The position numbers and the translations under genes are program-made. This document shows positions 12,952-38,482 of a stretch of DNA of 40,000 bases, piece after piece. The stretch spans positions 638,934 to 678,933 of the forward strand of contig OZ252287.1 of NCBI GenBank assembly GCA_965250085.1, given 5' to 3'. How positions within the stretch are numbered: position 1 is the stretch's first letter; each line of letters opens with the position of its first letter. The notes under the pieces were generated by a model, which had not been told where the DNA came from, searched no databases, and worked only from the letters and a program-made list of their open reading frames with translations. This DNA is from Candidatus Altimarinota bacterium. Lineage in GTDB: Bacteria > Patescibacteriota > Gracilibacteria > CAIRYL01.

Positions 12952-14195
12952 TTATGCTTTTCCTCTCATCACTAGTGTCGCTTCCAGTCTTTCGAGAGCC
13001 GTAATAAATGCTGCTTGGCGCATAGTGCACCCATATTTCTTTTCATTTTCTACTACCTTAAGAAGCGCGTCTTCCATAATACATTTGAGTTTTTCCTGTA
13101 TCACTTCTTCATCCCAATAGTGATTCGTGTTGTTTTGAACTTGCTCAAAGTATGAGACGGTCACTCCACCAGCATTGGCGAGGATATCTGGGATTATTTC
13201 AAATCCTTTTTCTGTGAGGATTGCATCTGCTTCGGGAGTGATGGGGCCATTTGCCAACTCTACAATGATAGGTGCTTTGACTTCACTGGCATTTTCAATA
13301 GTGATTTGATTTTCATATGCGGCAAGTACCAGAACGTCTACATTTGTAGTGAGAAGTTCTTCATTGGTGATTTTTTTTCCCTTGGATACGCCTGCACGGT
13401 GCGTTTTTCTCGTTTTACCTGCATTGCGATTTCTGGATCAAGTCCTCCCTCCACAAAGATTCCTCCTGCGGAATCAGAGACGGCTACTATTTCTACTCTT
13501 TTGGGTCCAAGTTTTTTGAGAATTTTTGCCATATTTGCTCCGGCATTTCCAAATCCCTGAATCGCAACTCTCATTTTGACAGGGCACGATCCTTTGACAT
13601 CACAAAATTTATGAATCACATAGGCCCCTCCCTGCGCAGTAGCAGTTGCACGCCCCTTGCTTCCCCCAAACTCCAGAGGTTTACCAGTAACCACTCCCAA
13701 AACGTTGTATCCACGAAGAGTGGAATATTCATCTGCGATCCAGCTCATGATTTGAGCATTCGTGTACACATCAGGAGCAGGGACATCTTTTTTAGGCCCA
13801 ATAATAGGAGCAATACGACGAGTATATCCACGCGTCAGTGCTTCCAATTCTCGATCAGAAAGTTCTTTGGGATTACAAATCACCCCTCCTTTTCCTCCTC
13901 CGAGTGGAATATCTACTACAGCACATTTCATTGTCATCCATGCGGCAAGCGCCTTCACTTCGTCTATGTTCACATCCCAATGATAGCGAATTCCTCCCTT
14001 TGCGGGTCCGCGCAGAGTAGAGTGCTGCACACGATAGCCCTCAAACACCTTTGTTTCTCCACTGTCCATTTTTACTGGGACAGAAACATGTAAGATTCGT
14101 TCTGGTTTCCGAAGGATCTGTTGTACATCTTCGCGAAGATTCATGATCTTTGCCGCATCTTCTATCTGCCGGAGGGTACTTTCATACAGAGACAT
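12952..14195 (-). pseudogene. gdhA: Glutamate dehydrogenase (Glu/Leu/Phe/Val dehydrogenase family), split by one frameshift in a poly-A run
   Basis: N-terminal ORF 13338..14195 carries the catalytic block KGGIRYH...PLGGGKGG and the NAD(P) motif IQGFGNAGA. C-terminal ORF 12952..13257 carries [10 protein letters not shown]...[16 protein letters not shown]. Translating 13258..13370 in the C-terminal frame gives [47 protein letters not shown], which joins the two halves. The frames switch in the T8 (coding-strand A8) run at 13371..13378. Confidence 0.85.
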
Positions 14196-15960: not shown

Positions 15961-18189
15961 TTATATCATCGGTTCTTCAAATTCCACTTCCTGAAATTTT
16001 TCATTTGCTGGAGACGCTTTTTCTGTGCTTGCATCCACCTCTTCCCATGCAGAAATAACATTTTCTACTTGCTCCTTGGGAAGGCAGTAGTTTTCACGTG
16101 AAAACTGGCGGGCGGCTTCGGCAGAGTTATTTTTGTTATCATAAAATATATCAAGTGTACGGGCAGAAAACGCCTGTGTGGTTTCTCCATTGATCGAAAT
16201 CTTGCAGCAAAAGTCTCTCATCGCAAGATTAATAATATCCTTGGGGGTAAAAATTGGAGAATATTCTTCAGCAAGAATATCGGCGTCTTCCGCTCCGACA
16301 CGAAAGGAGATAATGGATCCGATATTTCCAAAGACAGTGGTACGAATACGCTCTGAGAGTTGTCCCATAAATTGATGAGCGAGAGTAATATTGAGACGGT
16401 ATTTTCGGGCTTCAGAGAGGATTTCATCAAAGGTGTCAGTCGCAAAGTTGTGAAACTCATCCACATAAAAATAGAAATCCTGACGTTCTTCTTCTGGCGT
16501 ATCCGCCCGTGCCATAGCCGCCTGATAAATCTTAGTGACTGCCATCGCTCCCATAAGTCCCGCATTCTCTTCTCCGAGGATTCCTTTTGACACCTTCATC
16601 AGAAGGATCTTTCCCTCATCCATGATCTGGCGAAAATCAATTTTATTTTCTGGCTGACCAACAATATTTCGAATCATATTGGTAGCAACAAATTGCCCCA
16701 TTTTATTGAGCAGTGGCGTGATGGCCTCAGCATCAAACTTTTCACTCCAGGCGGCGAATTCATTCACCCAGAAGTTCTTTACAAAATCTTCTTCAATCCC
16801 ACGAATAATATACTGACGATAATTCTTGTCCGTTAGCATCTTCATGATCGAGAGTACTGTAGTGTTGGGCGAATCCAGAAGCGCGAGGATAGTGTACCTC
16901 AGAACATGTTCGAGCTTGGCATTCCAGTTCGTACCAAAAAGTTTTTTAAAGATTTCTATAAACCCTATGGTAACGCGCATTTTGAGCTCTGGGGGAACTT
17001 TTTCTAGCGGATTAAATCCAATAGGAAAGTCCATATCGGCCGGATCAAACAGTACGACATCTTTAATTCGATTTTCCGGAATCATCTTGAGTACATTGTC
17101 TACGAGATCTCCATGGGGATCGAGAACACCCACTCCCCTCCCATTGATAAGATCGTTACGAATGAGGAGTTCTAGTAGTTTTGACTTTCCTGATCCTGAT
17201 TTTCCTACGGTATATACGTGTCTGCGCCTATCAGCACGAAAAATTCCAAATGGAACTCGGGAATTATGAAAATTTGTTTCTCCAAAAAATGAAATGTCAG
17301 GATTGTTTTGATCAATCGGAAGCGTAGATGGTGGATCTGATTTTTTACTGAGCACATAGACAATATTGGGTACTTCTCGATCGTTGGGAAGATGATACAT
17401 AGTGGCAAGTTCTTCAAGTGAGTATTTGTGCCTTCGTCCCATTTTACGAGCTTTCATTGCTGCAAAAAATCCAGCTCCCTTTTTTGCGCCATTTTGCTTG
17501 ATGCGATTGAGATCAAGAGTATTAAATTGTGAAAAAGCTCGTACAATAGAATTGAGACGTGCCTTTTGTTGCTGCTGAGTCGTGCCAAAAACACATACTC
17601 TCACCGATCCATCAAACATTCGATGGGTATTTTTCTTTTTAATCGCTTCTTTTATGAACTTTCGTACTCCTCCTTTTTTAAACCAGAATTTGACTCGAAA
17701 AATATGACGAATGCCTTCCATCCACTTGCGAATACCTCTGAAAAAATGAAATCCTCCAGAGTCAAACTGGGGCTTGATGATGTATTGAACAAGTACGCTC
17801 TCGTGAACCGGGGTTTTGGAAAGGGTAGAAAGGAGAGCGGCAAGTGAGTCGCCTTCAAACTCCTCATAGGTTTTGAGCGGCAGCACATCTGTTTTTTGGA
17901 GTCCAAGTTCCGTGCCAAGAAATGTATTTTGTCCCTTGGAAAGATAGGAAAGGAAATCGGGTATTTCCAAAATATCTGCCTCTGGATAGAGTGAATAGAG
18001 CTGTCCACGAATAAGATCTCCGAGTTGGTCATCAGCACTAAATCCGAAGGAAATATGCTGTTGATGCGCAAACATTTCAAAACTTACTTGGCGGCTACCA
18101 AGACTCTCATGCAGAAGCTCAAGAAGCTGTTTGAATGTTTCTTCCTTTTTCTGATTGTTCGGCGGAATCTTGACCAGAAACGTCTTCAT
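15961..18189 (-). CDS. Soluble VirD4/TraG/TraD-like (type IV coupling protein-like) P-loop ATPase with an uncharacterised ~300 aa N-terminal domain
   Basis: Walker A VGKSGSGKSKLL, Walker B FYFYVDEFHNFAT, and a C-terminal LAHQFMGQLSERIRTTVFGNIGSIISFRVGAEDA block typical of the TraG/VirD4 C-terminus. No N-terminal TM helices are visible. Confidence 0.8.
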   Translation of the reverse strand: MKTFLVKIPPNNQKKEETFKQLLELLHESLGSRQVSFEMFAHQQHISFGFSADDQLGDLIRGQLYSLYPEADILEIPDFLSYLSKGQNTFLGTELGLQKTDVLPLKTYEEFEGDSLAALLSTLSKTPVHESVLVQYIIKPQFDSGGFHFFRGIRKWMEGIRHIFRVKFWFKKGGVRKFIKEAIKKKNTHRMFDGSVRVCVFGTTQQQQKARLNSIVRAFSQFNTLDLNRIKQNGAKKGAGFFAAMKARKMGRRHKYSLEELATMYHLPNDREVPNIVYVLSKKSDPPSTLPIDQNNPDISFFGETNFHNSRVPFGIFRADRRRHVYTVGKSGSGKSKLLELLIRNDLINGRGVGVLDPHGDLVDNVLKMIPENRIKDVVLFDPADMDFPIGFNPLEKVPPELKMRVTIGFIEIFKKLFGTNWNAKLEHVLRYTILALLDSPNTTVLSIMKMLTDKNYRQYIIRGIEEDFVKNFWVNEFAAWSEKFDAEAITPLLNKMGQFVATNMIRNIVGQPENKIDFRQIMDEGKILLMKVSKGILGEENAGLMGAMAVTKIYQAAMARADTPEEERQDFYFYVDEFHNFATDTFDEILSEARKYRLNITLAHQFMGQLSERIRTTVFGNIGSIISFRVGAEDADILAEEYSPIFTPKDIINLAMRDFCCKISINGETTQAFSARTLDIFYDNKNNSAEAARQFSRENYCLPKEQVENVISAWEEVDASTEKASPANEKFQEVEFEEPMI

Positions 18190-18214
18190 ATCATCATTGT
18201 ATCAGAAGATACCA

Positions 18215-18250: not shown

Positions 18251-18312
18251 CTCCCTTAACAAGGGAGATTAGGTGGGTTTTAAACCCCTTTGAGTCCCCC
18301 TTTCCAAGGGGG
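18251..18312. repeat. Triple-hairpin intergenic repeat, copy A (immediately 3' of Cys-rich paralog 1)
   Basis: Hairpin 1: CTCCCTT-AAC-AAGGGAG (18251..18267). Hairpin 2: GGGTT-TTA-AACCC (18275..18287). Hairpin 3: CCCCCTT-TCC-AAGGGGG (18296..18312). It shares the linear core CTCCCTTnAnAAGGGAGnnTnGGTGGnTTTnAA with copy B at 23972..24026, in the same orientation. Confidence 0.7.
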
Positions 18313-18315
18313 AAG

Positions 18316-19974
18316 CTAATACACTTCTGTCAAATAGCACTCTTCACAATACACGATTTCTGGGCGATCTGGATCATAACTGGTTTGGATTTCTTTCTTG
18401 CATTTTGCGCAATTGCGATCCCAGAGTTTCCGGGGATTACGCATATTGCTTCGCTTTTTGTGACGCACCAAAAAATGCTCATGAGGAATGGGGAAATGCA
18501 TTCGTCTATATAAATCAAGCTCTGCTCTTTGAATCTTAAAGAGTTCTCCAGAGGCGTGGCAGGCTATCGCCCAGTTGAGAATATCATCTGGGATTGTATC
18601 AATTGTGTCCGGAAGTTTGGATGCAGGAATTTTTTTACTCACATCAGAAAAATCTGCTTCTTCATCATCTTTCCATTTATATCCTTTTGCGAACGCTTCA
18701 TCTTTAGACAGAGGATAGTAGTCTTGGGCCATAGTCTGGTTATAACCAAATGAAGAGATATGTATGGGAAAAAACTCTCCATATTCCCCTGTTTCAATCA
18801 TATGCTTTTTGATTCGCGGGATGAGATCTTCATATTCTTCTTTGGTGTATTGTTTGTTCAAAATGCAGTACTGCTTGTGCCGAAGCCCCATACAGCCAAA
18901 AATGTGTGAGGAATGAGGAGAGTACATACAGTATTCTGCATCACTGCACTGTCCCAGTGAATGTGCACAAAACTTCATATTATGTGATCCGTATCCACAT
19001 ACAGTGCACTCATACAGTAATTCTCCTTCACCACATTCATGAATATCCATACAGTTTTTTAGTGGCATGAATCCCTGATAGATATATTTTGAATCCCAGA
19101 GATTTGAACTATCGAAGCAATGCTCTGCATTTTTACAGTGATCGAGGTATTCACCAAAGACGTTTTCATTGTGCACGCCATGTAAATATTTTTGTGGAAA
19201 TTTAATCTGAAATTTTTGAAATTCTTCACGAGTTTTTTGAACCTCTTTCCAAGATCTGAGTTTTTGTGCATATGATTCGTATGCTTCCTTTGTCGCTTCT
19301 TTATTGTGGATGTAATACCGTTTATTACGCAGGTTCACAGAAAAGATACAATTCTTGCAGCCAATACAATTTTTAAGAAAATAGCTATCTGAACAACCTT
19401 CTGAGTCTTGGAGAAAAGACGAATTATAGCAATTATAGCTATCGACACATTCGTAGCACAGTTCGCATTTACGAGCTCTGTAACAATCCATGCAGTTTTT
19501 ACATCCGTTTATACTGTACCCATACAGACAATCCCAGTTTTCATCAGAGTCAAAAATGAAATAACAATTTTTATTTTTCCCAGCATGATTGGTATATGGT
19601 GAGTTCTCATCAAATTGGTATCCAGTAAAAAGATTAGGGCGAGGCACTCTCTCAAAAAGATCTTTGAATTGGTCAAAGAACGGCTTACTAAAGTCATATT
19701 CTCTTCCATATTCCAATGGATCCCATTTATCGCTATACCAAACTTCTTGACCATAAACCCTATATGGACTTGACGAAGGGAAATTGGAAATAACATTTTT
19801 CCCTGTGAGGTCACACTTGCGCTTATAAAGAAAGAGTTGGTTTGGTTGTGCCAATCTACGTTGTTGGCGACAATCAATGCAGTGTGTTGGATTTGGAACA
19901 TCTATTTTTTTATAAAACTCCTGGTCTTCAGGAAAAATATGGAATTCTGCCGAACAATTTATACAAGTTTTCAT
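18316..19974 (-). CDS. Cys-rich zinc-ribbon protein, paralog 1 (uncharacterised family)
   Basis: 552 aa with 34 Cys by my count, and no signal peptide or TM. N-terminal CxxC...CxxC ribbon (CINC...CIDC) and C-terminal ribbon (CAKC...CEEC). Two internal Cys-rich modules. Clearly homologous along its full length to the ORFs at 19993..21591 and 22277..23947. Confidence 0.85.
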   Translation of the reverse strand: MKTCINCSAEFHIFPEDQEFYKKIDVPNPTHCIDCRQQRRLAQPNQLFLYKRKCDLTGKNVISNFPSSSPYRVYGQEVWYSDKWDPLEYGREYDFSKPFFDQFKDLFERVPRPNLFTGYQFDENSPYTNHAGKNKNCYFIFDSDENWDCLYGYSINGCKNCMDCYRARKCELCYECVDSYNCYNSSFLQDSEGCSDSYFLKNCIGCKNCIFSVNLRNKRYYIHNKEATKEAYESYAQKLRSWKEVQKTREEFQKFQIKFPQKYLHGVHNENVFGEYLDHCKNAEHCFDSSNLWDSKYIYQGFMPLKNCMDIHECGEGELLYECTVCGYGSHNMKFCAHSLGQCSDAEYCMYSPHSSHIFGCMGLRHKQYCILNKQYTKEEYEDLIPRIKKHMIETGEYGEFFPIHISSFGYNQTMAQDYYPLSKDEAFAKGYKWKDDEEADFSDVSKKIPASKLPDTIDTIPDDILNWAIACHASGELFKIQRAELDLYRRMHFPIPHEHFLVRHKKRSNMRNPRKLWDRNCAKCKKEIQTSYDPDRPEIVYCEECYLTEVY

Positions 19975-19992
19975 GTATGGAAAAACAGAGTA

Positions 19993-21591
19993 TTAGAACG
20001 CTTTTGACACATAGCACTTTTTACAATAAACCGCTTCTGGTCGATCTTTTGCATATGTTGTGCGAATGATTTTTCTACAATTCCTGCATTCTCTGTCATG
20101 GAGTTTTCTGGGATTCCTTTGATCAAATCTCATTTTATGTCGAACTTCTGGATGTAGATTGGGGATTGGCAAGTTCATGGTTTGATAGAATTCTAATTCT
20201 TTCTTCTGCAAGAGAAATGGCTTTTTAGATTTTTCACAAATGATCACTGCATTTGAAGGTTTTTCTGAAATATCCTGTATTGTATTTTCCTTCCACTTCC
20301 AACCTTTCATAATAACCTCGTCCTTCTTCATAGGCAAATATTCATATGAAACTGTTTCATTATATGAGAAGGGAGAAGTATGAATCGGGAAAAATTCACC
20401 CCATTCTCTTGCCTGAGTCATGTGTTTTATTATTTGCGAAACCAATTCTTCATACTTTTTTTTCGTGTATTGTGTATTGAAAATACAATATTTCTTATTT
20501 TTTAGTCCTACGCATCCAAATAAATATGAACTATTGTAACAATATTGGCAATATGATGAATTCTGCAAATAACGCCCAAAATAGCAGCATTTACAATTAT
20601 GGAACCCCGTTGTGCCATTAAGTTCATAGCAAAGCTCTGCTCCACTCCCACTGTAGGAGCAACGATGCATATCCTTGGCTCCATCTCCACAAGTATCGCA
20701 ATGCTGACTGTTTTGCATGTCTAAACAATCATAGCACTCATATAAATCCTTGCACTGATCTATATAATCTCCAGTTACATTCTCGTTTTTAACCCCATGC
20801 ATATATTTATGAGGGATTCGAAGAGCGATCGCATCACGTTTGTTTTTCCATTCTTTAATTTTTGAGAGAGTGAGCTTAAGAGTTTGCATTTTTTGCTCAT
20901 ACTCTTTTTTTGAGAATTGTTTATTTTCGAATACATATTTCTGATTTCTAAGTCCTGCTGAACAAAAACAGTTCTTACATCCAGTACAGTTTTTTAAGAA
21001 ATAGCTATTGGCACACCCATTACAATCTTGAGAAAAAAACAAACTGTATCCTTGAAAGCAATCTATACACTCATAACAGAGCTCGCACTGAATGCATTTG
21101 GTTACATCTACACATGATTTGCACCATGCTGCCGTATGGCTGTAATAAACATCTTCTGAATAAAAGCAGAGAGCTAAATAGCAGGATGTATTATTCCCTC
21201 CATAATTCACATACTCACAATTTTCTGAAGTTCCATCTTGCATAAGGGCTACATGGGGAATAGATTTTTGAAATTCAGAAAATTGATCAAAAAATGATCT
21301 ACTAAAATCAAATTTTCTGCCGTAATTCATAGGATCCCACTTGTCACTCCACCAGCACTCAGAGCAATAAGGCATATATTGTGAATTTATGTCGAAAACA
21401 GAAATCATTGATTTTTTGCACAAATTACATTGATGTTTATAGAGATTGCGTTCGTTGCGAAATGCATTGCGCCTTTGTCGGGAACAATCGGGGCAACGCG
21501 TTGGTTCTGGCACCTCTATTTTTGTATAAAACTCCTGATCTTCAGGAAGTATTTGAAATACTGCCGAGCAATTTACGCAGGTTTTTTGCAT
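19993..21591 (-). CDS. Cys-rich zinc-ribbon protein, paralog 2 (uncharacterised family)
   Basis: 532 aa with 43 Cys by my count. Same architecture as paralogs 1 and 3. Lacks the KLPDTIDxIPDDILNWAI block shared by the other two. Confidence 0.85.
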   Translation of the reverse strand: MQKTCVNCSAVFQILPEDQEFYTKIEVPEPTRCPDCSRQRRNAFRNERNLYKHQCNLCKKSMISVFDINSQYMPYCSECWWSDKWDPMNYGRKFDFSRSFFDQFSEFQKSIPHVALMQDGTSENCEYVNYGGNNTSCYLALCFYSEDVYYSHTAAWCKSCVDVTKCIQCELCYECIDCFQGYSLFFSQDCNGCANSYFLKNCTGCKNCFCSAGLRNQKYVFENKQFSKKEYEQKMQTLKLTLSKIKEWKNKRDAIALRIPHKYMHGVKNENVTGDYIDQCKDLYECYDCLDMQNSQHCDTCGDGAKDMHRCSYSGSGAELCYELNGTTGFHNCKCCYFGRYLQNSSYCQYCYNSSYLFGCVGLKNKKYCIFNTQYTKKKYEELVSQIIKHMTQAREWGEFFPIHTSPFSYNETVSYEYLPMKKDEVIMKGWKWKENTIQDISEKPSNAVIICEKSKKPFLLQKKELEFYQTMNLPIPNLHPEVRHKMRFDQRNPRKLHDRECRNCRKIIRTTYAKDRPEAVYCKKCYVSKAF

Positions 21592-21595
21592 TGAA

Positions 21596-22273
21596 TCATA
21601 GTGACTTTTTCACCTTGTAGCTCAAGTACATAAATGGTGTGTCTAAAAGCACCATACAAATTTTAAATATATAAGCAGCAATCATCATTTGCCATAAATT
21701 TTCATGTATTCCATAAAAAGCAATGGGATAGAAAATCAAAACATCAATCAACTGAGTTGTCAGGGTGCTGCCACAATTCCGAAGCCAGAGCTTCTTTCCT
21801 CGTGTCATTGTTTTTATTTTATGAAACCACCAGATATCAAAGTGTTGCTCTACAGCAAACATAATAAGAGCGGCTATGACAATGCGAGAGGAAACTTCTA
21901 GAAGTGATTTTATATATGGCTGAATAAAGTCTCCTGCGACAGGAGTGAAGAAAACGATCATTTGCTGAAGAAGTCCAATGATTACTATGATAGCAATAAT
22001 TAGCCAAACGAGTTCTTGCGCTGCTTTTTTCCCCCAATGTTCGGCAATGACATCGGTAGAAAAAAATAAAGTTGCATAGATAAGTTCCCCAAAAAGAAAA
22101 ACAAATCCAAAAATTTTGATGGTGAAGGGGGCGAGAAATAATGCCAGAACTGCCAAGGCACTTAGATATCCGAAAAATATAGCCTTTCCAAAACGAAATG
22201 CCATCAAGGCGAGTGATAACAAAGTAATTATTATGGTGACTATAAGCAATAGGTCCATGTTTTTAGTGTACAT
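21596..22273 (-). CDS. yhhQ: Queuosine-precursor (preQ0/preQ1) transporter, YhhQ/VUT (DUF165) family
   Basis: Polytopic membrane protein with family blocks ATLFFSTDVIAEHWGKKAA and EQHFDIWWFHKIK...KLWLRNCGSTLTTQLIDVLIF. Its start lies 3 nt after the paralog 3 stop, and its stop lies 4 nt before the paralog 2 start. Confidence 0.85.
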   Translation of the reverse strand: MYTKNMDLLLIVTIIITLLSLALMAFRFGKAIFFGYLSALAVLALFLAPFTIKIFGFVFLFGELIYATLFFSTDVIAEHWGKKAAQELVWLIIAIIVIIGLLQQMIVFFTPVAGDFIQPYIKSLLEVSSRIVIAALIMFAVEQHFDIWWFHKIKTMTRGKKLWLRNCGSTLTTQLIDVLIFYPIAFYGIHENLWQMMIAAYIFKICMVLLDTPFMYLSYKVKKSL

Positions 22274-22276
22274 TTC

Positions 22277-23947
22277 TTAAAAAACCTCTGCCATATAACA
22301 TTTCTCACAATACATTTTTTCTGGTCTCTCTGGTGCATAGGTTGTTTGGATTTCCTTATTGCATTTGTTGCACTTGCGTTTCCAAAGCTTGCGAGGATTA
22401 CGAAGAGCCTGCCGATGGACATGTCGTATGTCTGGATGAAAATGGGGAATAGGAAATTTTTGTTTTCGATAAAACTCGAGTTCTGATTTCTGAATTCGAA
22501 AAAGTTTTCTGGATTCCTCACATTCTATAGCCCAGTTCAAAATATCATCAGGAATTTTGTCAATGGTGTCAGGGAGTTTTGCTGCGGGGATCTTTTTGGT
22601 GACATCCGAGAAATCTGGCTCTGGTTCGTCATACCACTTCCAACCTTTTTGAAGAACTTCTTCCTTTGTGAGAGGAAAATATTCTTGAGCAACAGTTTCA
22701 TTGTATCCAAATGCAGAGAGTTCTGGTGGAAAAAATTCTCCCCACTCCTCCATTTGCAGCATGTGATTTTTTATTTGAGAAAAAATATTTTTGTATTCGT
22801 CTTCTGAGTATTGCTTGTTGAGAATACAGTGATGCTTCTGCCTGAGGGAGACACAACCCAGAAGGTCATGTACGTTTTGCCAGGAAAAGATAGAATGATA
22901 GACATCTACTGCCTGAAACGCCACATAATACGATCCAACTACGTTTTTCAGACCTACTCCGACACCAGCACTATTATAACAAAGCTCAGTACTGTCTCCC
23001 CAAATATTGAGGTCATAGCAGTCATTTACTTTTTTATACATATTGGTGCAAAACTTTGAATCTCGTATGTCTCCCGCAGAATCATATATTTCAAAAGAGT
23101 TTTGACATCCATTCAGATTGTCACCGCTTGTATTCTGATTCATTGCCCCACGAAATGCCCTCTTCACTTGCCGAGCACAAAATACTTCGAATTCTTTTTT
23201 GAAATCTTGAATCTTTGAATAATGGTGCAAATCAAATTCTCCTGCTTTCTTTGTATATTCCTCTGGAGAGTAAGGGATATTAAAAATATGATGCTGTTTT
23301 TGATGAAGATTGACACATCCAATACAATTCTTACATCCAATGCAATCGACAAGAAATGCAGATTCCGTGCAGGTCTTGCAAAAACGGCTAAACTTGAGGT
23401 CAAAGCAATTAATACAATTGATACACTCGTAGCAAAGCTCATTATCCCAAAGAAATAAAAAGTCCATACAATTTTTTATTTTTGCAAAAGTTTCTCCATA
23501 CATACAGTCTTCTGCTTGTTCTCCGTCAAATACTAAGTGGCAGTTTTTGAGACGATACGCATCGTGAACATAATCACTGTTAATACAATCCCCCAGAATA
23601 ATAAGTCCTATTTTGGGAACTTCATCCCAAAGTTCTTTAAACTGGCTAAAAAAAGGGCGATTAAAATCAAAATTCCGACCATACTCCATGGGATCCCATT
23701 TGTCTCCCCACCAACACTCAGAGCAATACACAGTATACGGTTTATCTGAGGAGTAGATGGTTACCATTTGTTTTTTACAAAAATCGCACGCTCTCTTGTG
23801 CAAATTTCTCTCATTTCGAAAAGCAAGCCGACGTTGCTGACGACAGTCGGGACAGAGTCTTGGCTCGAGAACATCTATTTTTGAGTAAAATGCCCGATCT
23901 TGATCTGTGATCTCAAAATCTGTGCCGCACTGCTGACATGATTTCAC
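22277..23947 (-). CDS. Cys-rich zinc-ribbon protein, paralog 3 (uncharacterised family)
   Basis: 556 aa with 34 Cys by my count. GTG start at 23947 (GTG AAA TCA TGT CAG CAG TGC = (M)KSCQQC). Same terminal ribbons as the paralogs, but the second internal module is Cys-depleted. Confidence 0.85.
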   Translation of the reverse strand: MKSCQQCGTDFEITDQDRAFYSKIDVLEPRLCPDCRQQRRLAFRNERNLHKRACDFCKKQMVTIYSSDKPYTVYCSECWWGDKWDPMEYGRNFDFNRPFFSQFKELWDEVPKIGLIILGDCINSDYVHDAYRLKNCHLVFDGEQAEDCMYGETFAKIKNCMDFLFLWDNELCYECINCINCFDLKFSRFCKTCTESAFLVDCIGCKNCIGCVNLHQKQHHIFNIPYSPEEYTKKAGEFDLHHYSKIQDFKKEFEVFCARQVKRAFRGAMNQNTSGDNLNGCQNSFEIYDSAGDIRDSKFCTNMYKKVNDCYDLNIWGDSTELCYNSAGVGVGLKNVVGSYYVAFQAVDVYHSIFSWQNVHDLLGCVSLRQKHHCILNKQYSEDEYKNIFSQIKNHMLQMEEWGEFFPPELSAFGYNETVAQEYFPLTKEEVLQKGWKWYDEPEPDFSDVTKKIPAAKLPDTIDKIPDDILNWAIECEESRKLFRIQKSELEFYRKQKFPIPHFHPDIRHVHRQALRNPRKLWKRKCNKCNKEIQTTYAPERPEKMYCEKCYMAEVF

Positions 23948-23971
23948 AAGAGAACAGTATCAAAAAAACTG

Positions 23972-24026
23972 CTCCCTTGAAAAGGGAGGCTGGGTGGATT
24001 TAAATAAATCCCCTTTTTCAAAGGGG
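23972..24026. repeat. Triple-hairpin intergenic repeat, copy B (between the K+ channel stop and the paralog 3 start)
   Basis: Hairpin 1: CTCCCTT-GAA-AAGGGAG (23972..23988). Hairpin 2: GGATTT-AAAT-AAATCC (23996..24011). Hairpin 3: CCCCTTT-TTC-AAAGGGG (24010..24026). On the minus strand, hairpin 1 is followed by CAG and then T7 (plus-strand A7 at 23962..23968). Confidence 0.7.
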
Positions 24027-24040
24027 AGGGGGAATAAAGA

Positions 24041-28155: not shown

Positions 28156-29307
28156 ATGACTTCTGATGCACAAAATACCCCTGGGGATATCGATCCTGTT
28201 TTTGAGCAGATACATGCATTGCAGCAATCTAAATCTGAACAAACGGAAATCTCTGGAGAATCCTCAAAAGCAATGGAAGAAAATGTTATCCCAGTAGAAA
28301 AAAATATTTCAGAAAGGTTAGAAAAAAATGTGGGCGAAGATCAAATAGTCACCAAGGATAAAAACAATAGAAGTTTATATGTTCTCACTATGGAAAAAGG
28401 AAAGCATTTTTTCCAAAAGATACTACTGGACATTCAGGGTGTAGGGAAAAAAGAAGGAAGCTTTTTTCATTTTTTACACAAATCGAAAGACAAATCTGCT
28501 GAAAACATCCTTATTGAAAATATTTTAAGCCAAGGAAAAGAAGAAGAAGAAAAAACAAAACAAAAAGAAATACTATATAAAAAAAATGCTTTTGCTGAAG
28601 ATCGCAAACTCTCTCCAGAGGAAATGGCTCAGCAAAAAACAGAGAGGGGGAAAGCTGAAGAACTTCTTCGATTTTCGAAAGTTCTTACTCTTGGGATTTT
28701 GGTGATTCCTCTCTTTTCATTTCTCTTCAGTGCAATGTTTTTGAGTACTTCTGGATTCTTCTCCACTCTAGTGGAAGACAAGAATTACGCACTTAACTTT
28801 CGGAAAAAAACAGAAGAGCTTCACACTCTCAAGTTATTTGTATCTTCTCAAGAGAAAAAAATTGCCGATCTCGAAGGAAAAATTGCGGAAATCAAGGAAA
28901 ACAAAGTACTTGCGGAGATTGCAGATAACAGAATTCACTGGAGAGAGGTTTTTGAAACTATCAATCGGATTACAGATACTGCTTTTGAAGGAAATAAAAT
29001 CAGTAAATATGTAAACTATAGTAATTACTCTGGAAATAGTAAGAATGAAACGATACAAGTAGACGGGAATGTAAGAAGTCTCGTCGGTGCCAGTTGGCAG
29101 GATCTTATTAAGCTTCGAAATGTCCTTTCATCACATGACAGCTTTGAACCAGAAGAAATATATTTCCGCCAATTTGTGAAACACAAAGCCCAAAACTCTT
29201 CACAAATTGCTACTTCAGAATATGTGACACCTTTTAGTCTATCGTTTAAGTACATACGTGAAGATCTTGAAGAAGGTGGTGAGAACGATTTGCATGCGGC
29301 TCCATGA
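28156..29307 (+). CDS. Bitopic membrane protein, possibly a PilN-like pilus assembly component
   Basis: ~175 aa acidic, low-complexity cytoplasmic N-terminus, one TM (VLTLGILVIPLFSFLFSAMFL), then a coiled coil (LHTLKLFVSSQEKKIADLEGKIAEIKENK) and an alpha/beta C-terminal domain. It lies upstream of PilO-like, pilB and pilC. Confidence 0.45.
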   Translation: MTSDAQNTPGDIDPVFEQIHALQQSKSEQTEISGESSKAMEENVIPVEKNISERLEKNVGEDQIVTKDKNNRSLYVLTMEKGKHFFQKILLDIQGVGKKEGSFFHFLHKSKDKSAENILIENILSQGKEEEEKTKQKEILYKKNAFAEDRKLSPEEMAQQKTERGKAEELLRFSKVLTLGILVIPLFSFLFSAMFLSTSGFFSTLVEDKNYALNFRKKTEELHTLKLFVSSQEKKIADLEGKIAEIKENKVLAEIADNRIHWREVFETINRITDTAFEGNKISKYVNYSNYSGNSKNETIQVDGNVRSLVGASWQDLIKLRNVLSSHDSFEPEEIYFRQFVKHKAQNSSQIATSEYVTPFSLSFKYIREDLEEGGENDLHAAP

Positions 29308-29370
29308 TAAAAAAGAGAATGCCTTGGTGCGTTCATCTATAATTTATTACTTGTAATTTATAATTTCTCC

Positions 29371-30105
29371 ATGCTTCCTGTCGACAAACGAAAAGCTGAA
29401 ATTTACCTCAAAAGAGTTCGCACTCTCCATAAAAATGCATATACCTATTTTGCCCTCGCGGGCATAATCGTTTTTAGTACTTTGGTACTTCATTCATACC
29501 CGAAATTTCAAGAAATGCAGCAACTCAAAAGTGATATTCGGGAAACTGAAACAAAAATAAATGAACAGGAAGAAAAGAAGCAACAATTGCAGAAAGAACT
29601 TGAAGAAATTGCCGATGAATACGAAATAGTGTTGGAAGAGTGGAAGCCAATTTTAGACCAAGTGCTTCCTCAGCAAAACCCTACAGATCAAGTGGTTAGA
29701 TTTTTAGAAGAATTTTCTCTTGCTTCTGATACCAAGAGTCATCCTATGAAGATTGAAAATATTTCGTTTTCTAGTGCTCTTGAGGAAGAAAGCTACTCTG
29801 TACTTCCTTTTCGAATGAGTGTGGAAGCAGATGAATACAATTTCATTCTCTTTTTGGAGCGAGTAAAAAATTCTGGGTCACTTAAAAAATCTGATTTTTA
29901 CAAACTCGAACCAGTTCCTATCATGAGCATAGAATCTATAAGTGTTAACCTTCCTGAGCAAAGAATAAACACTCCTAGAATAATCTCATTAGGAGATGAG
30001 GGGCTCGAAGTAGAAACTTTCATATTCACTGTAGAAATGGAGGCGTACTTTCGCGAAGAAGTAAATGAAGAATCTTCTTCTCCGCCTCTTACTCCTGATG
30101 CATAA
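29371..30105 (+). CDS. Bitopic membrane protein, PilO-like pilus assembly component
   Basis: Short N-terminus, TM (YFALAGIIVFSTLVLH), a long coiled coil (EMQQLKSDIRETETKINEQEEKKQQLQKELEEIADE) and a C-terminal domain. This matches the PilO topology and gene position. Confidence 0.5.
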   Translation: MLPVDKRKAEIYLKRVRTLHKNAYTYFALAGIIVFSTLVLHSYPKFQEMQQLKSDIRETETKINEQEEKKQQLQKELEEIADEYEIVLEEWKPILDQVLPQQNPTDQVVRFLEEFSLASDTKSHPMKIENISFSSALEEESYSVLPFRMSVEADEYNFILFLERVKNSGSLKKSDFYKLEPVPIMSIESISVNLPEQRINTPRIISLGDEGLEVETFIFTVEMEAYFREEVNEESSSPPLTPDA

Positions 30106-30130
30106 AATTTTATGATTCTTTTTCTTTTCC

Positions 30131-31372
30131 ATGGCGGTTCAAGATCTGAGAGAAAAATTGACGGATGCAATTATAGCGGGAAACACTCCTCAGATTGTAA
30201 AAATATGTCTCACCATGGCACTTGAAATGGGTGCTTCTGATGTTCATGTAGAACCTGGAGAAAAAATCGTTCGCATTCGATTTCGTATCGATGGCATCTT
30301 GAGAGAAATAATTGAATATCCTCATAATATACATTCGGCCGTGATTTCTCGTATAAAAATCATGTCTGGATTAAAAATCGATGAACAGAGAAAGCCACAA
30401 GATGGGCGTATGCAAATGGTTACTGAAAACCATAAGCAAATTGAACTTCGTGTCTCTACTTTGCCCACAATAAATACAGAAAAAGCTTGTATGCGTTTGC
30501 AAGATAAAAACAAAAATATTCCTCCTCTTGAAAAACTAGGACTTAGAGGAAACAACTATAAAGCAATGATGAAAACTATCAAAAATCCAAATGGAATTAC
30601 GCTTGTGACAGGGCCTACCGGATCAGGAAAAACAACAACCCTCTACTCTATGATGGATGTATTAAATAAGGTGGATGTAAATATTTTAACCATTGAAGAT
30701 CCAGTAGAATACGAAATGCCCGGACTCTCACAGAGTCAAGTAAAGCCTGAGATTGATTATGATTTTTACTTCGGTCTTCGTACAGCATTGAGGCAGGATC
30801 CAGATATCATCATGGTGGGAGAAATACGAGATCAGGAGACTATTGAAACTGCTATCAAAGCGGCTCTTACTGGCCATATGGTGCTCTCTACTATTCACAC
30901 CAATTCTGCTGCATCAACAGTCACTCGTATTTTAGATATGGGGGTAAAGCCTTTTAAAATAACTGCTTCTCTTAGAACCATTCAGGCACAGAGATTGGTG
31001 CGAAAAATTTGCGAAAACTGTAAAGAAGAGTATGTGGCAGAATCAAAAGTAGCTGAGGAAATTGCTAAGGAACTCCAACAACTCCATGCTGAAGAAGATT
31101 TTGATCGCACTCTTTTACAAGATATGAAGCTCTATCGCGGAAAAGGCTGTGAAAAATGTGAACATACTGGAATGAAAGGGCGAGTCGCTATTTTTGAAGT
31201 AATGACGATGACCAGGCAACTTGAAGAAATGATTCTCAATGGAAAGCATGAAAAGGATATTGAAGATTTTGCTATTTCACAGGGAATGACAACGTTATTG
31301 CAAGATGGATACATCAAAACACTTTTGGGAGTAACAACTCTCGAAGAAATCTATAAAGTCGCGAACTCTTAA
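30131..31372 (+). CDS. pilB: Type IV pilus assembly ATPase, PilB/GspE family (short form without the N1 domain)
   Basis: Walker A GPTGSGKTTTLYS, Asp box ILTIEDPVEY, Walker B ALRQDPDIIMVGEIRD, His box GHMVLSTIHTN, and the tetracysteine motif CENC...CEKC typical of PilB/GspE rather than PilT. Confidence 0.9.
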   Translation: MAVQDLREKLTDAIIAGNTPQIVKICLTMALEMGASDVHVEPGEKIVRIRFRIDGILREIIEYPHNIHSAVISRIKIMSGLKIDEQRKPQDGRMQMVTENHKQIELRVSTLPTINTEKACMRLQDKNKNIPPLEKLGLRGNNYKAMMKTIKNPNGITLVTGPTGSGKTTTLYSMMDVLNKVDVNILTIEDPVEYEMPGLSQSQVKPEIDYDFYFGLRTALRQDPDIIMVGEIRDQETIETAIKAALTGHMVLSTIHTNSAASTVTRILDMGVKPFKITASLRTIQAQRLVRKICENCKEEYVAESKVAEEIAKELQQLHAEEDFDRTLLQDMKLYRGKGCEKCEHTGMKGRVAIFEVMTMTRQLEEMILNGKHEKDIEDFAISQGMTTLLQDGYIKTLLGVTTLEEIYKVANS

Positions 31373-31432
31373 CTCTTATTTCATAATTTTTTCCTTATAC
31401 TAGCTACCTCTCAATTTTTAATTCCCCTCCCT

Positions 31433-32632
31433 ATGACAGACTCTCCTTCACTTCATATCGGCAAAGACGAATACAAAGCAGTTAATATCACAGATGTAAG
31501 GCCTGCAAACCAGCAAATGTCTAGTGGAAGTCTGTTTGAGAGACTCAATGAGTGGGTTATCGTCAAATCCCCTTTAAAACTCAAGGAAAAAGTTGCCTTC
31601 TTTCGACTTCTCGCAACTATGATCAATGCCGGTGTCTCACTGATCAAAGCGCTTTATATTTTAGAAGAACAAACTCAGGATCAGAAAATGAAGCGTATTT
31701 GTCAGTCCATTGCTCTTAAAATAGAACTCGGGCAAAAGCTTTCTCAGGGACTTGAAGATTATCCTGAAATCTTTACTGACTCAGAGATTGGAATGGTTCG
31801 CTCAGGAGAAGCTTCGGGAAGGCTCAATGATATTTTGATTACTCTTGCAGATGAAGTAGAAAAAAATGCAAAGTTAAGAGGGAAAATAAAGGGCGCTATG
31901 ATGTATCCCCTCGCAATTATTGTAGTAGTTATCGCCGTTTTTGTGACAGTAACAGTGCTTGTAATTCCAAAAATGCAAGCCATCTTTGAAACTGCTGGAG
32001 CAGAGCTTCCCTCAAGTACCAAGTTTTTAATGGCGATGAGTAATTTTTTCCGAGGATCCTTTTTTGGAATTCCGAATTTTATTTTTATTATTCTGGGAAC
32101 TATTGGGCTCGGTGTCGCTTTTAAGATGTGGAAAAATACTGAATCAGGAAAGTATTATTGGGATAAGTTCTTTCTCAAAATTCCTATTTTTGGAACACTC
32201 AAGAGAAAATTGGTTCTCACTCAATTTGCCAATAATATTTCAACTCTGACCAAAAGTGGTATCTCTATTGTAAAAACCCTTAAAATTACTTCTGATGTTG
32301 TAGGCAATGAAGTATACAAAAGACGTATCCTTCTCATTGCTGAAGATGTAAAACAAGGTATTACTATTGGAGAAAACATAAAAGGAGACATCAAAATATT
32401 TCCCACTATGCTGGTATCTATGATCGCTATTGGTGAGCAAACTGCTCAGTTGGATACCGTGACGGCAAAAGTAGCAGATTTTTATCAGGATGAAGTAGAC
32501 ACGATGGTCAAATCTCTCTCCTCTCTTATGGAGCCATTCATTATTGTTTTTATAGGAGGAATTGTAGGATTTATGGTAAGTGCCATCATGCAGCCGGTAT
32601 TACAACTGAGTGATGTTGCTTCCAGTCTATAG
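31433..32632 (+). CDS. pilC: Type IV pilus platform protein PilC (GspF family)
   Basis: Two T2SSF repeats (FFRLLATMINAGVSLIKAL...; LTQFANNISTLTKSGISIVKTL...) and three TM segments. Ends ...GGIVGFMVSAIMQPVLQL. Confidence 0.9.
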   Translation: MTDSPSLHIGKDEYKAVNITDVRPANQQMSSGSLFERLNEWVIVKSPLKLKEKVAFFRLLATMINAGVSLIKALYILEEQTQDQKMKRICQSIALKIELGQKLSQGLEDYPEIFTDSEIGMVRSGEASGRLNDILITLADEVEKNAKLRGKIKGAMMYPLAIIVVVIAVFVTVTVLVIPKMQAIFETAGAELPSSTKFLMAMSNFFRGSFFGIPNFIFIILGTIGLGVAFKMWKNTESGKYYWDKFFLKIPIFGTLKRKLVLTQFANNISTLTKSGISIVKTLKITSDVVGNEVYKRRILLIAEDVKQGITIGENIKGDIKIFPTMLVSMIAIGEQTAQLDTVTAKVADFYQDEVDTMVKSLSSLMEPFIIVFIGGIVGFMVSAIMQPVLQLSDVASSL

Positions 32633-32693
32633 TATTACATACTATTTTTGAGAACTTGACAAACACTGCTCCCTATGACCTAAGAAATATTGC

Positions 32694-32722
32694 TTGTTTT
32701 TTAAACGGAGAAATGGTATACT
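32694..32722 (+). promoter_or_regulatory. Candidate extended -10 promoter for the pilin gene
   Basis: TTGTTT (32694..32699), 17 nt, then TGgTATACT (TATACT at 32717..32722). A ~100 nt T/C-rich leader precedes the ATG at 32827. This is a pattern match only. Confidence 0.25.
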
Positions 32723-32826
32723 GGTGGGTGAAGATGTAGACAAAAATATATTTTTCTTTAAAAATTCTGTTCTCATTTTTGATTTCTTTTTTTCCTTTTT
32801 TTTTATCTTTTTATCCCTTTTTTCTT

Positions 32827-33336
32827 ATGAAGAATACAAAAGGTTTTACCCTTATCGAGCTTCTCGTGGTGATTGCCATTATTGGTATCCTCGCGACCGG
32901 AGCTGTTACTGTATTTTCTCAGGCTCAAGCAAAAGCTCGTGATGCCGTGAGACTTGCAGATCTCAACACACTCCGCAGTGCTGTAGAGGTCTATAGAGCT
33001 GACAATACCACCTATCCAGATGGTACCAGCGCCACTACCTTTGACTCTGCTATTGAAGGACCTTATGTCCAGTCAGTTCCAAGTGGTGCTACTGCTTATC
33101 CATATAACTACGCAGTGCTTACTTCTGAGTTAGCAGCCCCAACAAATTATGAAATGGCTGTTCTTTTGGAAGCATCTTCTAACTTAACTGCCACTGGAGC
33201 CGCCCAAACTGATGGAGGTGGACAAACCGATGCATATGAAGTCGGTCCTGTCTCTAGTTACATTGAAGGAGCCTCTGGAGCAACCGGCGCAAATACCGCT
33301 GCTACTTCTCCTGCCGCTACTATGAGTGTGTTGTAA
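32827..33336 (+). CDS. Type IV pilin (prepilin with an N-terminal methylation motif)
   Basis: MKNTKG|FTLIELLVVIAIIGILATGAV is a canonical class III signal peptide. The mature protein has no Cys and an Ala/Thr/Gly-rich C-terminus. Start at ATG 32827, because the track's upstream extension is F/L-rich junk. Confidence 0.9.
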   Translation: MKNTKGFTLIELLVVIAIIGILATGAVTVFSQAQAKARDAVRLADLNTLRSAVEVYRADNTTYPDGTSATTFDSAIEGPYVQSVPSGATAYPYNYAVLTSELAAPTNYEMAVLLEASSNLTATGAAQTDGGGQTDAYEVGPVSSYIEGASGATGANTAATSPAATMSVL

Positions 33337-37400: not shown

Positions 37401-38389
37401 TTTTTGTATTTTTTCAATAACTGATTTCCCTTAAAAGTTTCAACTAATTCTGCCATATTGAGTTTACTATATTTTTTAGACTCAAATATTTTTTTTGATA
37501 AAATAAAAAACTGAGAACCTGCCGAGTGCAAAGCTTGCTTATTTGCTTCTGTTGCAGTTGGATAAGAAGAAAATTTATAAATTATTTCTCCTGCATGATT
37601 TTTCCAAACATCCCTTTTAACTTTCACATACTCAATTTCTGGATGCACTACGAGTCCCAGGTTCGAGGGCAATGTCCAAGGCGTTGTTGTCCACGCCAAG
37701 ATGTATGTAGGTTCTTCATTCGTAACTCGTAATTCGTTATTTGGCATTAACTGAAATTTTACCGTAACGGCTGGATCATCAATGTCTTTATAATTGAGAC
37801 CTGCTTCAAAATTGGAAAGTGGAGATCCCAATTTGGGAGAATAGGGAACGACTTTTTCTCCTTCATAGATCAGTCCCTTGTCCCAGAGACTTTTAAACAC
37901 CCACCACACTGACTCCATAAACTCGGGATTCATGGTTTTATAGTCGTCTTCAAAATCCACCCAGCGTCCCATACGAGTCACTGTTTTTTTCCAATCCTCT
38001 GCACAGCGCATCACAATACTTCGACACAGTTCGTTATATTTCCCTACTCCCATACTTTCGATCTCTGGTTTGCCACCAATTTTATTTTCTTTTTCTACCT
38101 GAAACTCGACCGGTACTCCATGACAATCCCAGCCAAATCGCCGTTCAATGCGCTTTCCTCGCATGGCAAAAAACCGGGGGATCACATCTTTGATTGTTCC
38201 TGCAAGTATGTGTCCATAATGCGGCAGACCGGTTGCAAAAGGAGGTCCATCATAAAACGCATACCGATCCTTCGTATCTCTCATTTCAATACTCTTGCGA
38301 AATATATCGTTTTTTTTCCAAAACGAAATGATATCACGTTCTAGTTGTGGGAAGTTTTGCTTTGGATCAACTGACTGAAAATATGTCAT
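34484..38389 (-). CDS. ileS: Isoleucine--tRNA ligase (type 2, eukaryote-like) with an inserted histidine-phosphatase (PGAM-like) domain
   Basis: HIGH motif PHYGHILAG, editing-domain block WTTTPWTLPSN, WAISRNRYWGAPLPVW, KMSKS motif GQKMSKSKKN and the DQTRGWFYTL block. True start is ATG 38389 (MTYFQSVDPKQNFPQLE), because the track's extension to 38500 runs into the leader. An insert at about 36203..36769 carries RHGE, SPLLRTRQTA and THG motifs. Confidence 0.95.
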   Translation of the reverse strand: MTYFQSVDPKQNFPQLERDIISFWKKNDIFRKSIEMRDTKDRYAFYDGPPFATGLPHYGHILAGTIKDVIPRFFAMRGKRIERRFGWDCHGVPVEFQVEKENKIGGKPEIESMGVGKYNELCRSIVMRCAEDWKKTVTRMGRWVDFEDDYKTMNPEFMESVWWVFKSLWDKGLIYEGEKVVPYSPKLGSPLSNFEAGLNYKDIDDPAVTVKFQLMPNNELRVTNEEPTYILAWTTTPWTLPSNLGLVVHPEIEYVKVKRDVWKNHAGEIIYKFSSYPTATEANKQALHSAGSQFFILSKKIFESKKYSKLNMAELVETFKGNQLLKKYKKYQPLFPFFKNHANAFQIFGDDFVSDEEGTGVVHMAPTGEDDARILTAHNVELLYPFDENCFFDDTISELEGKYFRPDPEVPGSKESNANDWVVEELKKSGHLFRHDRVRHSYPHCWRTDSALMYRGVKTWFIHVEKIKKQMLKNNKQVHWVPEAIGQKRFHNWLENAQDWAISRNRYWGAPLPVWRCPETGEVECIGSIKELQERSQKNSKIIVMRHGEGKHNITGLIDSRIDSTVELTGKGKSQAQSAGQELRKEKIDMIFTSPLLRTRQTAEIVATQLEIDPKKIRVDKRLKEVDVGDREGKKLTEFRKLFPDAHERYYGNSHNGETQEDVLQRASEFLREIQKEYRDKNILVITHGDPARIIRKFFTHESIEFLFDPKGSEKVMLDTGEYEIYSFDGRPENPKGEVDLHKPYIDEVTILSASGKEMERVSEVLDCWFESGSMPYAQSHYPFENKEKFEQNFPADFIAEGLDQTRGWFYTLHVLSTALFDKPAFKNVIVNGIVLAEDGQKMSKSKKNYPDPHEVFERFGVDAVRFTLMNSPVVKADDLRFSEKAVLENMRNVFLPLWNAYSFFVTYANIDGWVPAGSEEKGGGSKKSSKLKTPNSPSAGSGQAKLDRWILTELRELVRHVTTEMEGYDLFNAVKNIRVFLDKLTNGYVRRSRRRFWKSGMGQDKEEAFQTLYTVLTTFCQVLAPFAPFMTEHIYQNLTKQTSVHLTDFPEFENLPDDSELRREFEVVETIISLGLSLRAQQKIKLRQPLQEAEVFLPHKFSQNTLQDNKEVILKELNVKEVRLMKTAEEICECIIKPDARKLGPVFGKNMQQVIQMAKSGEYTETKGGVQVGEYFLEEGTYEVEYHGKGDHDVSSFKGIVVSLDMNITESLKDEGLMREFVRCVQDARKEAGFDVADRIELTVAGEKSTLATLKQFEKEIAAEVLAKQIKFEKEIKNAHFEQKIVLNESKIRIYLTKIK

Positions 38390-38482
38390 AGGGAATTTTA
38401 AATTTTGAATTATAAATTTGCTAAGAGCTAATGGCGAACTGCTAAAGGCTTTAAATATCAGAGCATCTTTCCCCACATTACT

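Follow-up and report, generated by a model that had tools for sequence, protein, structure and literature searches.

What do three large cysteine-rich paralogs do in a bacterium of the Candidate Phyla Radiation (CPR), and does the transporter gene lodged among them betray their pathway? The question is raised by four tightly packed genes on the minus strand of a 40,000-nucleotide stretch of DNA from Candidatus Altimarinota bacterium (assembly GCA_965250085.1, contig OZ252287.1, positions 638,934 to 678,933 of the forward strand), here called the window, in whose numbering all coordinates are given. We conclude, with high confidence as far as the description goes, that the block represents, in a form particular to its lineage, a module conserved among Peregrinibacteria, Gracilibacteria, and related CPR. 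Three parts make up this module, namely a divergent TrmB regulator, a same-strand array of ancient cytoplasmic paralogs, and a soluble DUF8128/VirD4-like ATPase; the present genome lacks the TrmB gene, and yhhQ has landed between two array members. That the paralogs serve the neighboring ATPase as a set of adaptors or clients is a tentative reading, which we rate as possible rather than probable. The genes concerned are the following:

22277..23947, minus strand: paralog 1, 556 aa, GTG start, 34 cysteines (open reading frame, alignment, family profile model, clustering)
21596..22273, minus strand: YhhQ/Vut_1 queuosine-precursor transporter homolog, 225 aa (TIGR00697, Vut_1)
19993..21591, minus strand: paralog 2, 532 aa, 43 cysteines (open reading frame, alignment)
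18316..19974, minus strand: paralog 3, 552 aa, 34 cysteines, on which the domain map and the AlphaFold model are based (open reading frame, alignment)
15961..18189, minus strand: soluble DUF8128 plus VirD4/TraG/HerA-like P-loop ATPase, 742 aa (Pfam, NCBIfam, neighborhood)

The family, its arrays, and their partners

Read along the minus strand, the four genes of the block follow one another as paralog 1, yhhQ, paralog 2, and paralog 3, with gaps of 3, 4, and 18 nt that are confirmed by the junction sequences. Most of what an earlier note on this DNA had described stands: the three large proteins can be aligned from one end to the other (42–46% identity), their cysteine counts were given exactly, and the conserved blocks ELCYEC, KWDP..YGR..DF, and RNPRKL are found in all three, with HGVxNEN and YFLKNCxGCKNC in two paralogs each. 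No signal peptide was detected in the three paralogs, and transmembrane segments are likewise absent from them, the best 19-residue hydropathy windows reaching only 0.65–1.24; a cytoplasmic location is supported, as is zinc binding at the termini. The transporter was correctly named as well (TIGR00697, E 2.7e-41, 141.6 bits against a cutoff of 50.95; Vut_1, PF02592, E 2.6e-39, 135.5 bits against a cutoff of 27.2), its product being polytopic, with several 19-residue windows of hydropathy of at least 1.6, and scoring 37.8 against the E. coli-type equivalog NF008406, far under the cutoff of 252.

The cysteine-rich family itself is large, CPR-restricted, and without a name. More than 7,200 relatives occur among 5.8 billion proteins, all of them unnamed or "hypothetical", and they derive from Peregrinibacteria, Peribacteria, and "Patescibacteria group" metagenome-assembled genomes; a profile search of 1.84 billion representatives at 50% identity returned about 5,000 clusters, 2,266 of them at E ≤ 1e-30, the matches being nearly all 540–600 aa long. 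A few contigs that carry family or ATPase genes bear the labels Micrarchaeota, Bdellovibrionales, Bdellovibrionota, Deltaproteobacteria, or Oligoflexia (L022, L040, L054; P0332, P0350, P0366, P0367) and are probably misbinned or mislabeled CPR contigs. The earlier statement that the family matches no characterized enzyme holds for the core against Pfam, NCBIfam, PADLOC, a PDB sequence search, and Foldseek: for the three paralogs and 60 aligned members, Pfam, NCBIfam, PADLOC, and PHROGs recognized only terminal zinc fingers, PADLOC gave the three paralogs no meaningful match, and the PDB sequence-profile search yielded only weak LIM-like matches to the last finger. No family member was found in GenBank phages or plasmids, and IMG/VR held one marginal fragment; a weak core match to phrog_15341 (E 3e-6), itself of unknown function, was dropped after tblastn of GenBank phages recovered no member of the family. 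Literature searches found no description of the family, and Anantharaman et al. 2016 describe cysteine-rich proteins of another kind, about 1,655 aa long and mostly with a predicted signal peptide.

The genomic setting was read from 79 loci encoding relatives of the paralogs (the family-seeded set), mostly from Peribacteria or Peregrinibacteria, the others being labeled Gracilibacteria, Abawacabacteria, Nomurabacteria, Paceibacterota, or Saccharibacteria, a few of them probably through misbinning. Same-strand tandem arrays of 2–9 copies within about 17 kb occur in 55 of these loci, and one 1.39-Mb contig carries eight copies in 21.7 kb; the homologs are therefore not the scattered singletons that the earlier note had allowed for, but stand in arrays with conserved partners other than yhhQ, namely TrmB and the DUF8128/VirD4-like ATPase. 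These recurrent partners emerged when all neighboring open reading frames of the family loci were clustered. The first is a TrmB-family helix-turn-helix (HTH) protein of about 250 aa (PF01978), present in 26 of the 79 loci, with its gene nearly always on the opposite strand, either upstream of the array or interleaved with its members; only the N-terminal HTH of these homologs was identified. The syntenic locus of the closest relative (L165), whose ATPase is 76% identical, reads YidC, SSB and, after further genes, NrdR, DnaB, K-channel, TrmB (divergent), one family gene, ATPase, GIY-YIG, and ThyA, and in L166 and L167 the order is TrmB-family-TrmB-family-ATPase.

The second partner is the ATPase, which is matched in Pfam by T4SS-DNA_transf, DUF87, and TrwB_AAD_bind and, at its N-terminus, by PF26449 (DUF8128); its P-loop domain scores 34.4 bits against PF02534 (cutoff 20.1) and reaches E 1.5e-16 with the NCBIfam CD1115 family, under the cutoff of that model. 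A membrane anchor was not found in it (top 19-residue hydropathy 1.17, with DUF8128 forming the N-terminus), and neither VirB4/channel genes nor a relaxase gene occurs in the window or among the recurrent neighbor clusters. The ATPase adjoins the family in 15–19 of the 79 family-seeded loci and, where a full-length copy is present, immediately follows the family on the same strand in 12 of 15 loci, the remaining three having it immediately upstream. In a reciprocal, unbiased set of 80 metagenome loci, seeded from the ATPase alignment, six of the seven informative close orthologs (at least 50% identity) abut the family; among the distant ATPases, most of which have no family neighbor, the exceptions are L094, where four copies follow the ATPase, and L090, L093, and L096, where split forms of the family protein adjoin it. 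In other CPR lineages (L097–L145 and many others), the longer ATPases of about 900 aa belong to a conserved cluster with DprA, topoisomerase I, and a sigma70_r4/HARE-HTH protein that stands beside FtsQ/MurG, and in L128 and L129 a run of eight type IV pilin-like genes comes after the ATPase.

With these sets in hand, the place of yhhQ can be assessed. The earlier note had taken co-transcription with YhhQ to link the family to queuosine or 7-deazaguanine salvage or to tRNA modification, a view favored by the 3–4 nt that separate yhhQ from its flanking paralogs and by an unrelated locus (L012) in which a family gene is again followed by a yhhQ homolog. Recurrent adjacency of yhhQ had been set beforehand as the check on this view, and tblastn found it in one of the 79 family-seeded and none of the 80 ATPase-seeded loci; the single case is L012, whose YhhQ is only 28% identical to that of the window and lies 400 nt away. 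The gene is absent from the syntenic L165, the window yielded no tgt or que gene (in the other loci, no search aimed at these genes was made), and unrelated guests occupy like positions elsewhere. These include ORF6N-domain (KilA-N-like) genes of about 185 aa on the opposite strand between array members (L016 4791–5342, L020, L059) and, at array edges, a RelE/Gp49-like toxin gene and a four-helix-bundle (23S rRNA IVS-type) gene. A role of the family in queuosine metabolism or tRNA modification is accordingly very improbable, and the yhhQ of the window looks like a passenger inside the array. For annotation, the lesson is that tight packing with yhhQ is no evidence of a shared pathway.

Age and architecture of the paralogs

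The paralogs had been called old duplicates under purifying selection on the strength of a DNA comparison of their best-conserved block. The predominance of third-position differences in that comparison is borne out, but its coordinates were one base out of register and the divergence is 23% rather than about 30%: the in-frame blocks 18568–18654 and 22529–22615 differ at 20 of 87 nt, 16 of the 20 at third codon positions. Over whole genes, nucleotide identity between paralogs at codon positions 1, 2, and 3 is about 0.55–0.58, 0.67–0.70, and 0.37–0.39, a pattern from which it follows that these are indeed old duplicates under purifying selection and no assembly artifact. The same two blocks encode a 29-residue peptide, DFSDV(S/T)KKIPA(S/A)KLPDTID(T/K)IPDDILNWA, that is identical at 26 of 29 positions in paralogs 1 and 3, against 46% identity for the two proteins as a whole; it sits in the least conserved segment of the family and is absent from paralog 2, and since 16 of the 20 nucleotide differences fall at third positions, it has been kept by selection and not by recent gene conversion.

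Comparison across genomes leads to the same view. Of the members that have a paralog at their own locus, 91% find their best match in another genome (mean identity 56% vs 44%), and clusters at 50% identity or more never contain two members of one locus; the arrays are therefore neither recent expansions nor hypervariable cassettes. As judged by these sequence comparisons, they are sets of ancient, non-redundant orthologous subfamilies, that of paralog 3, for example, being present in 10–15 other loci. Recent duplication or gene conversion was rejected, since synonymous sites are near saturation and orthologs resemble one another more than paralogs of one genome do; purifying selection has acted on the paralogs from a time before the lineages split.

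Mapped onto paralog 3, the proteins are built of two central domains between two double zinc-finger modules:

19729..19974, minus strand: N-terminal double zinc-finger module, residues 1–82 (PF13451, E 1.1e-5)
19291..19620, minus strand: predicted cysteine-lattice domain A, residues 119–228 (cysteine spacing, model bridges, hhalign)
18844..19188, minus strand: predicted cysteine-lattice domain B, homologous duplicate of A, residues 263–377 (hhalign, conservation)
18319..18579, minus strand: C-terminal double zinc-finger module, residues 466–552 (PF23477, E 6.8e-5; TIGR04272, E 1.6e-3)

Both halves of this plan are duplications, residues ~120–240 being homologous to ~268–390 (hhalign probability 99.9%, E 1e-34) and the finger pair 1–48/49–82 to the C-terminal pair 466–515/516–552 (hhalign E 3e-23 and 7e-15). 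In paralog 3, the first N-terminal finger (ZfA) is a treble clef with C4/C7/C32/C35 and the second (ZfB) is degenerate, whereas at the C-terminus it is the first (ZfA') that is degenerate and the second (ZfB') that has C522/C525/C543/C546; paralog 1, in which the Pfam matches to zf_Tbcl and zf_Tbcl_2 are confined to the termini, retains the second N-terminal Cys4 zinc site, and paralog 2 lacks a variable insert of about 19 residues. The ~85-residue terminal modules match the CxxC-x17-CxxC treble clefs of zf_Tbcl (PF13451; 25.7 bits in paralog 3, cutoff 24), zf_Tbcl_2 (PF23477; 47 of 60 family members, mostly under its cutoff), and TIGR04272 and behave as Cys4 zinc sites, and the last finger is weakly like the LIM double fingers of PDB entries. 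These zf_Tbcl-type models cover only about 30% of the protein, however, the central 330 residues matching nothing, and to our knowledge they have no known function. The modular build is confirmed by four independent loci (L090, L093, L096, L124) in which split forms occur as neighbors of each other and of the ATPase, namely proteins of ~310 aa restricted to the two central domains and proteins of ~100–150 aa restricted to the C-terminal double zinc finger.

The cysteines of the two kinds of domain behave differently, as a co-loss analysis of 205 full-length members shows. The four terminal tetrads are retained or lost as units, which is the behavior expected of zinc sites: co-loss r is 0.63 to 1.0 at sites 2 and 3, which are present in only 25% and 33% of members, and 0.4 to 0.8 at site 1, and it is 1.0 for cysteines 57/75/78 of the second N-terminal site. 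The 30-odd central cysteines, in contrast, are lost independently of one another (r ≤ 0.4), and central Zn4 knuckles or disulfides were on this ground rejected as the reason for them. Members have 25–52 cysteines per protein (median 39), and in domain A the spacing between cysteines is about 3-fold enriched at each multiple of three and about 10-fold depleted (~0.1-fold) at other lags, with a 12-residue repeat, N-C-x-F-x-x-D-S-x-x-C-x, that can be read from the sequence; in domain B, cysteine occupancy is 30–60%, and its end forms the most conserved motif of the family, FGCxGLxxKxYCILNKQYxKEEYE.

In a beta-helix of 12 residues per turn, such as that of the Tenebrio antifreeze protein, every third residue occupies one of four inward positions. 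The cysteine-rich domains read as a predicted tight beta-helix of this kind, with cysteines at the four inward positions: the full-length AlphaFold model of paralog 3 (predicted local distance difference test, pLDDT, 85; predicted template modeling score, pTM, 0.87) places short beta-bridges at every 12 residues, where pLDDT is 70–77. The core modeled by itself reaches pLDDT 74 and pTM 0.51, so that the fingers appear to pack on the core. With the Tenebrio molitor-type antifreeze beta-helix (TCTxSxxCxxAx), the family shares the 12-residue repeat and the small residues or cysteines at four period-3 positions, but 60 family members gave no match to the Pfam antifreeze model at E ≤ 1; the T-x-T ice-binding face is absent, repeat position 1 being N/D and position 3 aromatic, and no pairwise co-loss of cysteines six residues apart points to disulfides. 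The family also differs in being cytoplasmic, flanked by zinc fingers, duplicated in its domain, and capped by the NKQYxKEEYE helix. In Foldseek searches with the full-length model, nothing beyond zinc ribbons was found in the PDB and only zinc-ribbon proteins in BFVD. The core-only matches, none of them significant (E ≥ 0.01, TM-score ~0.1), were all beta-solenoids, namely pentapeptide-repeat proteins, tailspikes, and pectate lyases. The best of them, the pentapeptide-repeat proteins (MfpA, Qnr, AlbG), are likewise cytoplasmic, but the period of the family is 12 (3 × 4) and not 5, the root-mean-square deviation is about 15 Å, and there is no match to the Pfam Pentapeptide models.

Flanking elements and the remainder of the window

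The four genes are exactly bracketed by two copies of a double-hairpin element, the only ones in the 40-kb window, and a further short motif precedes the start codons of paralog 1 and the ATPase:

23972..24027, minus strand: double-hairpin element, copy A, between the K-channel gene and paralog 1 (sequence)
18251..18312, minus strand: double-hairpin element, copy B, beginning 4 nt past the stop codon of paralog 3 (sequence)
23954..23962, minus strand: TGATACTGT, candidate extended -10 element, 6 nt upstream of the paralog 1 GTG (predicted from sequence)
18196..18204, minus strand: TGATACAAT, candidate extended -10 element, 6 nt upstream of the ATPase ATG (predicted from sequence)

The element, of about 62 nt, comprises two GC-rich hairpins, CCCCxTTxxAAAxGGGG and CTCCCTTnnnAAGGGAG, the second of which is followed in copy A by a T7 run; the copies, about 75% identical, run in the same direction, and none of the 167 fetched loci contains the element. 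It may act as a terminator or RNA-stability element, or be the footprint of a block insertion or expansion, and the bracketing is consistent with a single transcription unit for the four genes. The two motifs fit TGATAC(T/A)(G/A)T and are spaced exactly 6 nt from their start codons, which looks like an extended -10 element set for leaderless transcripts; a promoter scan of the window did not list them.

Several other features of the window are recorded here in their own right. A 1338-aa class I aminoacyl-tRNA synthetase (34484–38500, minus strand; tRNA-synt_1, Anticodon_1, DUF5915) has a His_Phos_1 domain (residues 579–744, E 4e-38) inserted in the middle of its catalytic domain. A glutamate/leucine dehydrogenase homolog (13338–14195, minus strand) is only 285 aa long, spans positions 1–100 of the 241-position C-terminal model, and may be truncated, split, or a pseudogene. 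The SSB encoded at 3000–3872 on the minus strand, of 290 aa, has two tandem SSB/OB domains and is kept in the closest relative (L165 384–1244). Finally, a type IV pilus set on the plus strand (28156–33336), consisting of an unassigned 383-aa gene and genes for PilO-like, PilB-type ATPase, PilC-type platform, and prepilin proteins, lies ~4–9 kb from the four-gene block and recurs near family genes in L029, L042, and L049; this is probably lineage synteny.

What the module may do

Neither the central domain nor the three-part module could be assigned to a known family or system. In the tentative reading given at the outset, the family proteins would be rigid scaffolds whose conserved zinc-finger ends dock a common partner, either the ATPase or a nucleic acid, while the paralog-specific helix surfaces would be directed each at a target of its own; as a whole, the array would supply the ATPase motor with a fixed set of adaptors or clients, of which sub-sets are switched on by TrmB-type regulators. 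A 2025 survey (PMC12102498) counts 5,713 VirD4-like homologues in Patescibacteria, only 148 of them near virB4, and describes the VirD4-like homologue of a cultured strain as non-essential and possibly exapted; the ATPase of the window is one of these orphan homologues of type IV coupling proteins, and the passages considered describe no partner genes and do not mention a linkage to the cysteine-rich family or to TrmB regulators.

A number of observations weigh against this reading. The link between family and ATPase is one of adjacency alone, and most of the ATPase relatives in other CPR classes (35–42% identity, about 900 aa) have no family neighbor and stand in a context of DprA, TopA, sigma70_r4/HARE-HTH, and ATPase. 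The ATPase follows only 9 of 46 complete array ends; such a figure is to be expected where a genome has several arrays and one ATPase gene beside one of them, but mere synteny would fit it as well. In the window, moreover, the hairpins and a separate TGATACAAT-N6-ATG motif intervene between paralog 3 and the ATPase, and their co-transcription is therefore doubtful. As to the fold, the beta-helix is predicted from sequence periodicity and from the model region of pLDDT 70–77, its solenoid matches in the core-only Foldseek search are the non-significant ones given above, and the invariant polar residues N124, N224, N373, N412, Q102, D163, and D310 would equally suit an enzyme. That an exapted soluble coupling-protein-like motor, with the array members as its clients or adaptors, constitutes a new macromolecule-handling system of Gracilibacteria-lineage CPR, cargo and fold claims taken jointly, is an unlikely conjunction.

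In a different explanation, the paralogs would be substrate-specific enzymes or ligand sensors, each orthologous subfamily with a specificity of its own; every sub-array would be induced by a separate, ligand-responsive TrmB-type regulator, and the ATPase would adjoin them through synteny only. Many invariant polar residues cap both repeat domains, the TrmB regulators are interleaved at roughly one per 1–3 genes, the paralogs are ancient and non-redundant, and right-handed beta-helix enzymes figure among the non-significant Foldseek matches; no catalytic motif or family was recognized, however, the adjacency to the ATPase recurs across two divergent ATPase subfamilies and the split forms, and of the TrmB homologs only the HTH is identified, so that we regard this account as having a real, if minor, chance of being right. 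Export is less likely still: the paralogs would be effectors or surface proteins of a type IV secretion system (T4SS) or pilus machine, recruited by the ATPase, in the manner of Bartonella virD4-bep, where a VirD4-family ATPase is likewise found beside tandem paralogous multidomain proteins. A regular, tight solenoid rich in cysteines is what extracellular disulfide-bonded proteins typically have, the C-terminal module, which is conserved, carries a basic charge (+6), and the organisms are episymbionts in which T4SS genes matter (PMC12102498). Yet the paralogs have neither signal peptide nor transmembrane segment, and the ATPase differs from VirD4/TraG coupling proteins in being soluble, in its N-terminal DUF8128, and in having no VirB4/channel genes nearby. 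Four folded zinc fingers are typically intracellular and would hinder translocation, the pairwise loss of core cysteines that disulfides would require is absent, and the array proteins, which carry no BID, FIC, or relaxase domains, form ancient conserved orthologous groups, unlike fast-evolving effectors.

The remaining two explanations we consider improbable. By analogy with cysteine-lined copper storage bundles, the proteins might be a cytoplasmic metal-thiolate store or buffer, whose cysteine-lined interior would take up Zn, Cu(I), or Fe ions stacked in a column; the abundance of cysteines on a strict, predicted inward-facing lattice would suit this, as would their independent loss, which multinuclear thiolate clusters tolerate, but the second repeat domain retains few of them, at least 10 conserved paralog types would be hard to explain, and no metal-homeostasis genes recur in the neighborhood. 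No better placed is a defense against phages or mobile elements, in which the paralogs would act as sensors or DNA mimics and the ATPase would be the effector motor. In its favor are the weak PADLOC matches of the ATPase, which are to mad8 (E 5.8e-12) and HerA only, the mobile-type guest genes within arrays, and the pentapeptide DNA-mimic proteins that top the non-significant Foldseek list; against it, the family has no PADLOC match and is absent from the phage and plasmid collections, its paralogs are conserved orthologous groups that are not diversifying, and the solenoid domains are only mildly acidic (-4 to -5).

Whichever explanation holds, the tiny genomes of CPR/Patescibacteria keep many 1.7-kb paralogs of one unnamed family (at least 8–9 in the loci read), the eight copies of the 1.39-Mb contig alone taking up about 1% of the genome. 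Among cytoplasmic proteins, the predicted cysteine-lattice beta-helix would be an unusual fold. The linkage described here also gives concrete candidate partners to the unexplained orphan VirD4-like ATPases treated in the 2025 survey (PMC12102498). If the reading of the array as adaptors or clients of the ATPase is true, a TrmB-controlled system would handle protein or DNA cargo, processing or delivering it while the cells live as episymbionts, and the family would add a new class to the cytoplasmic folds, a 12-residue beta-helix that is duplicated, lined with cysteines in its core, and clamped at both ends by double zinc fingers.

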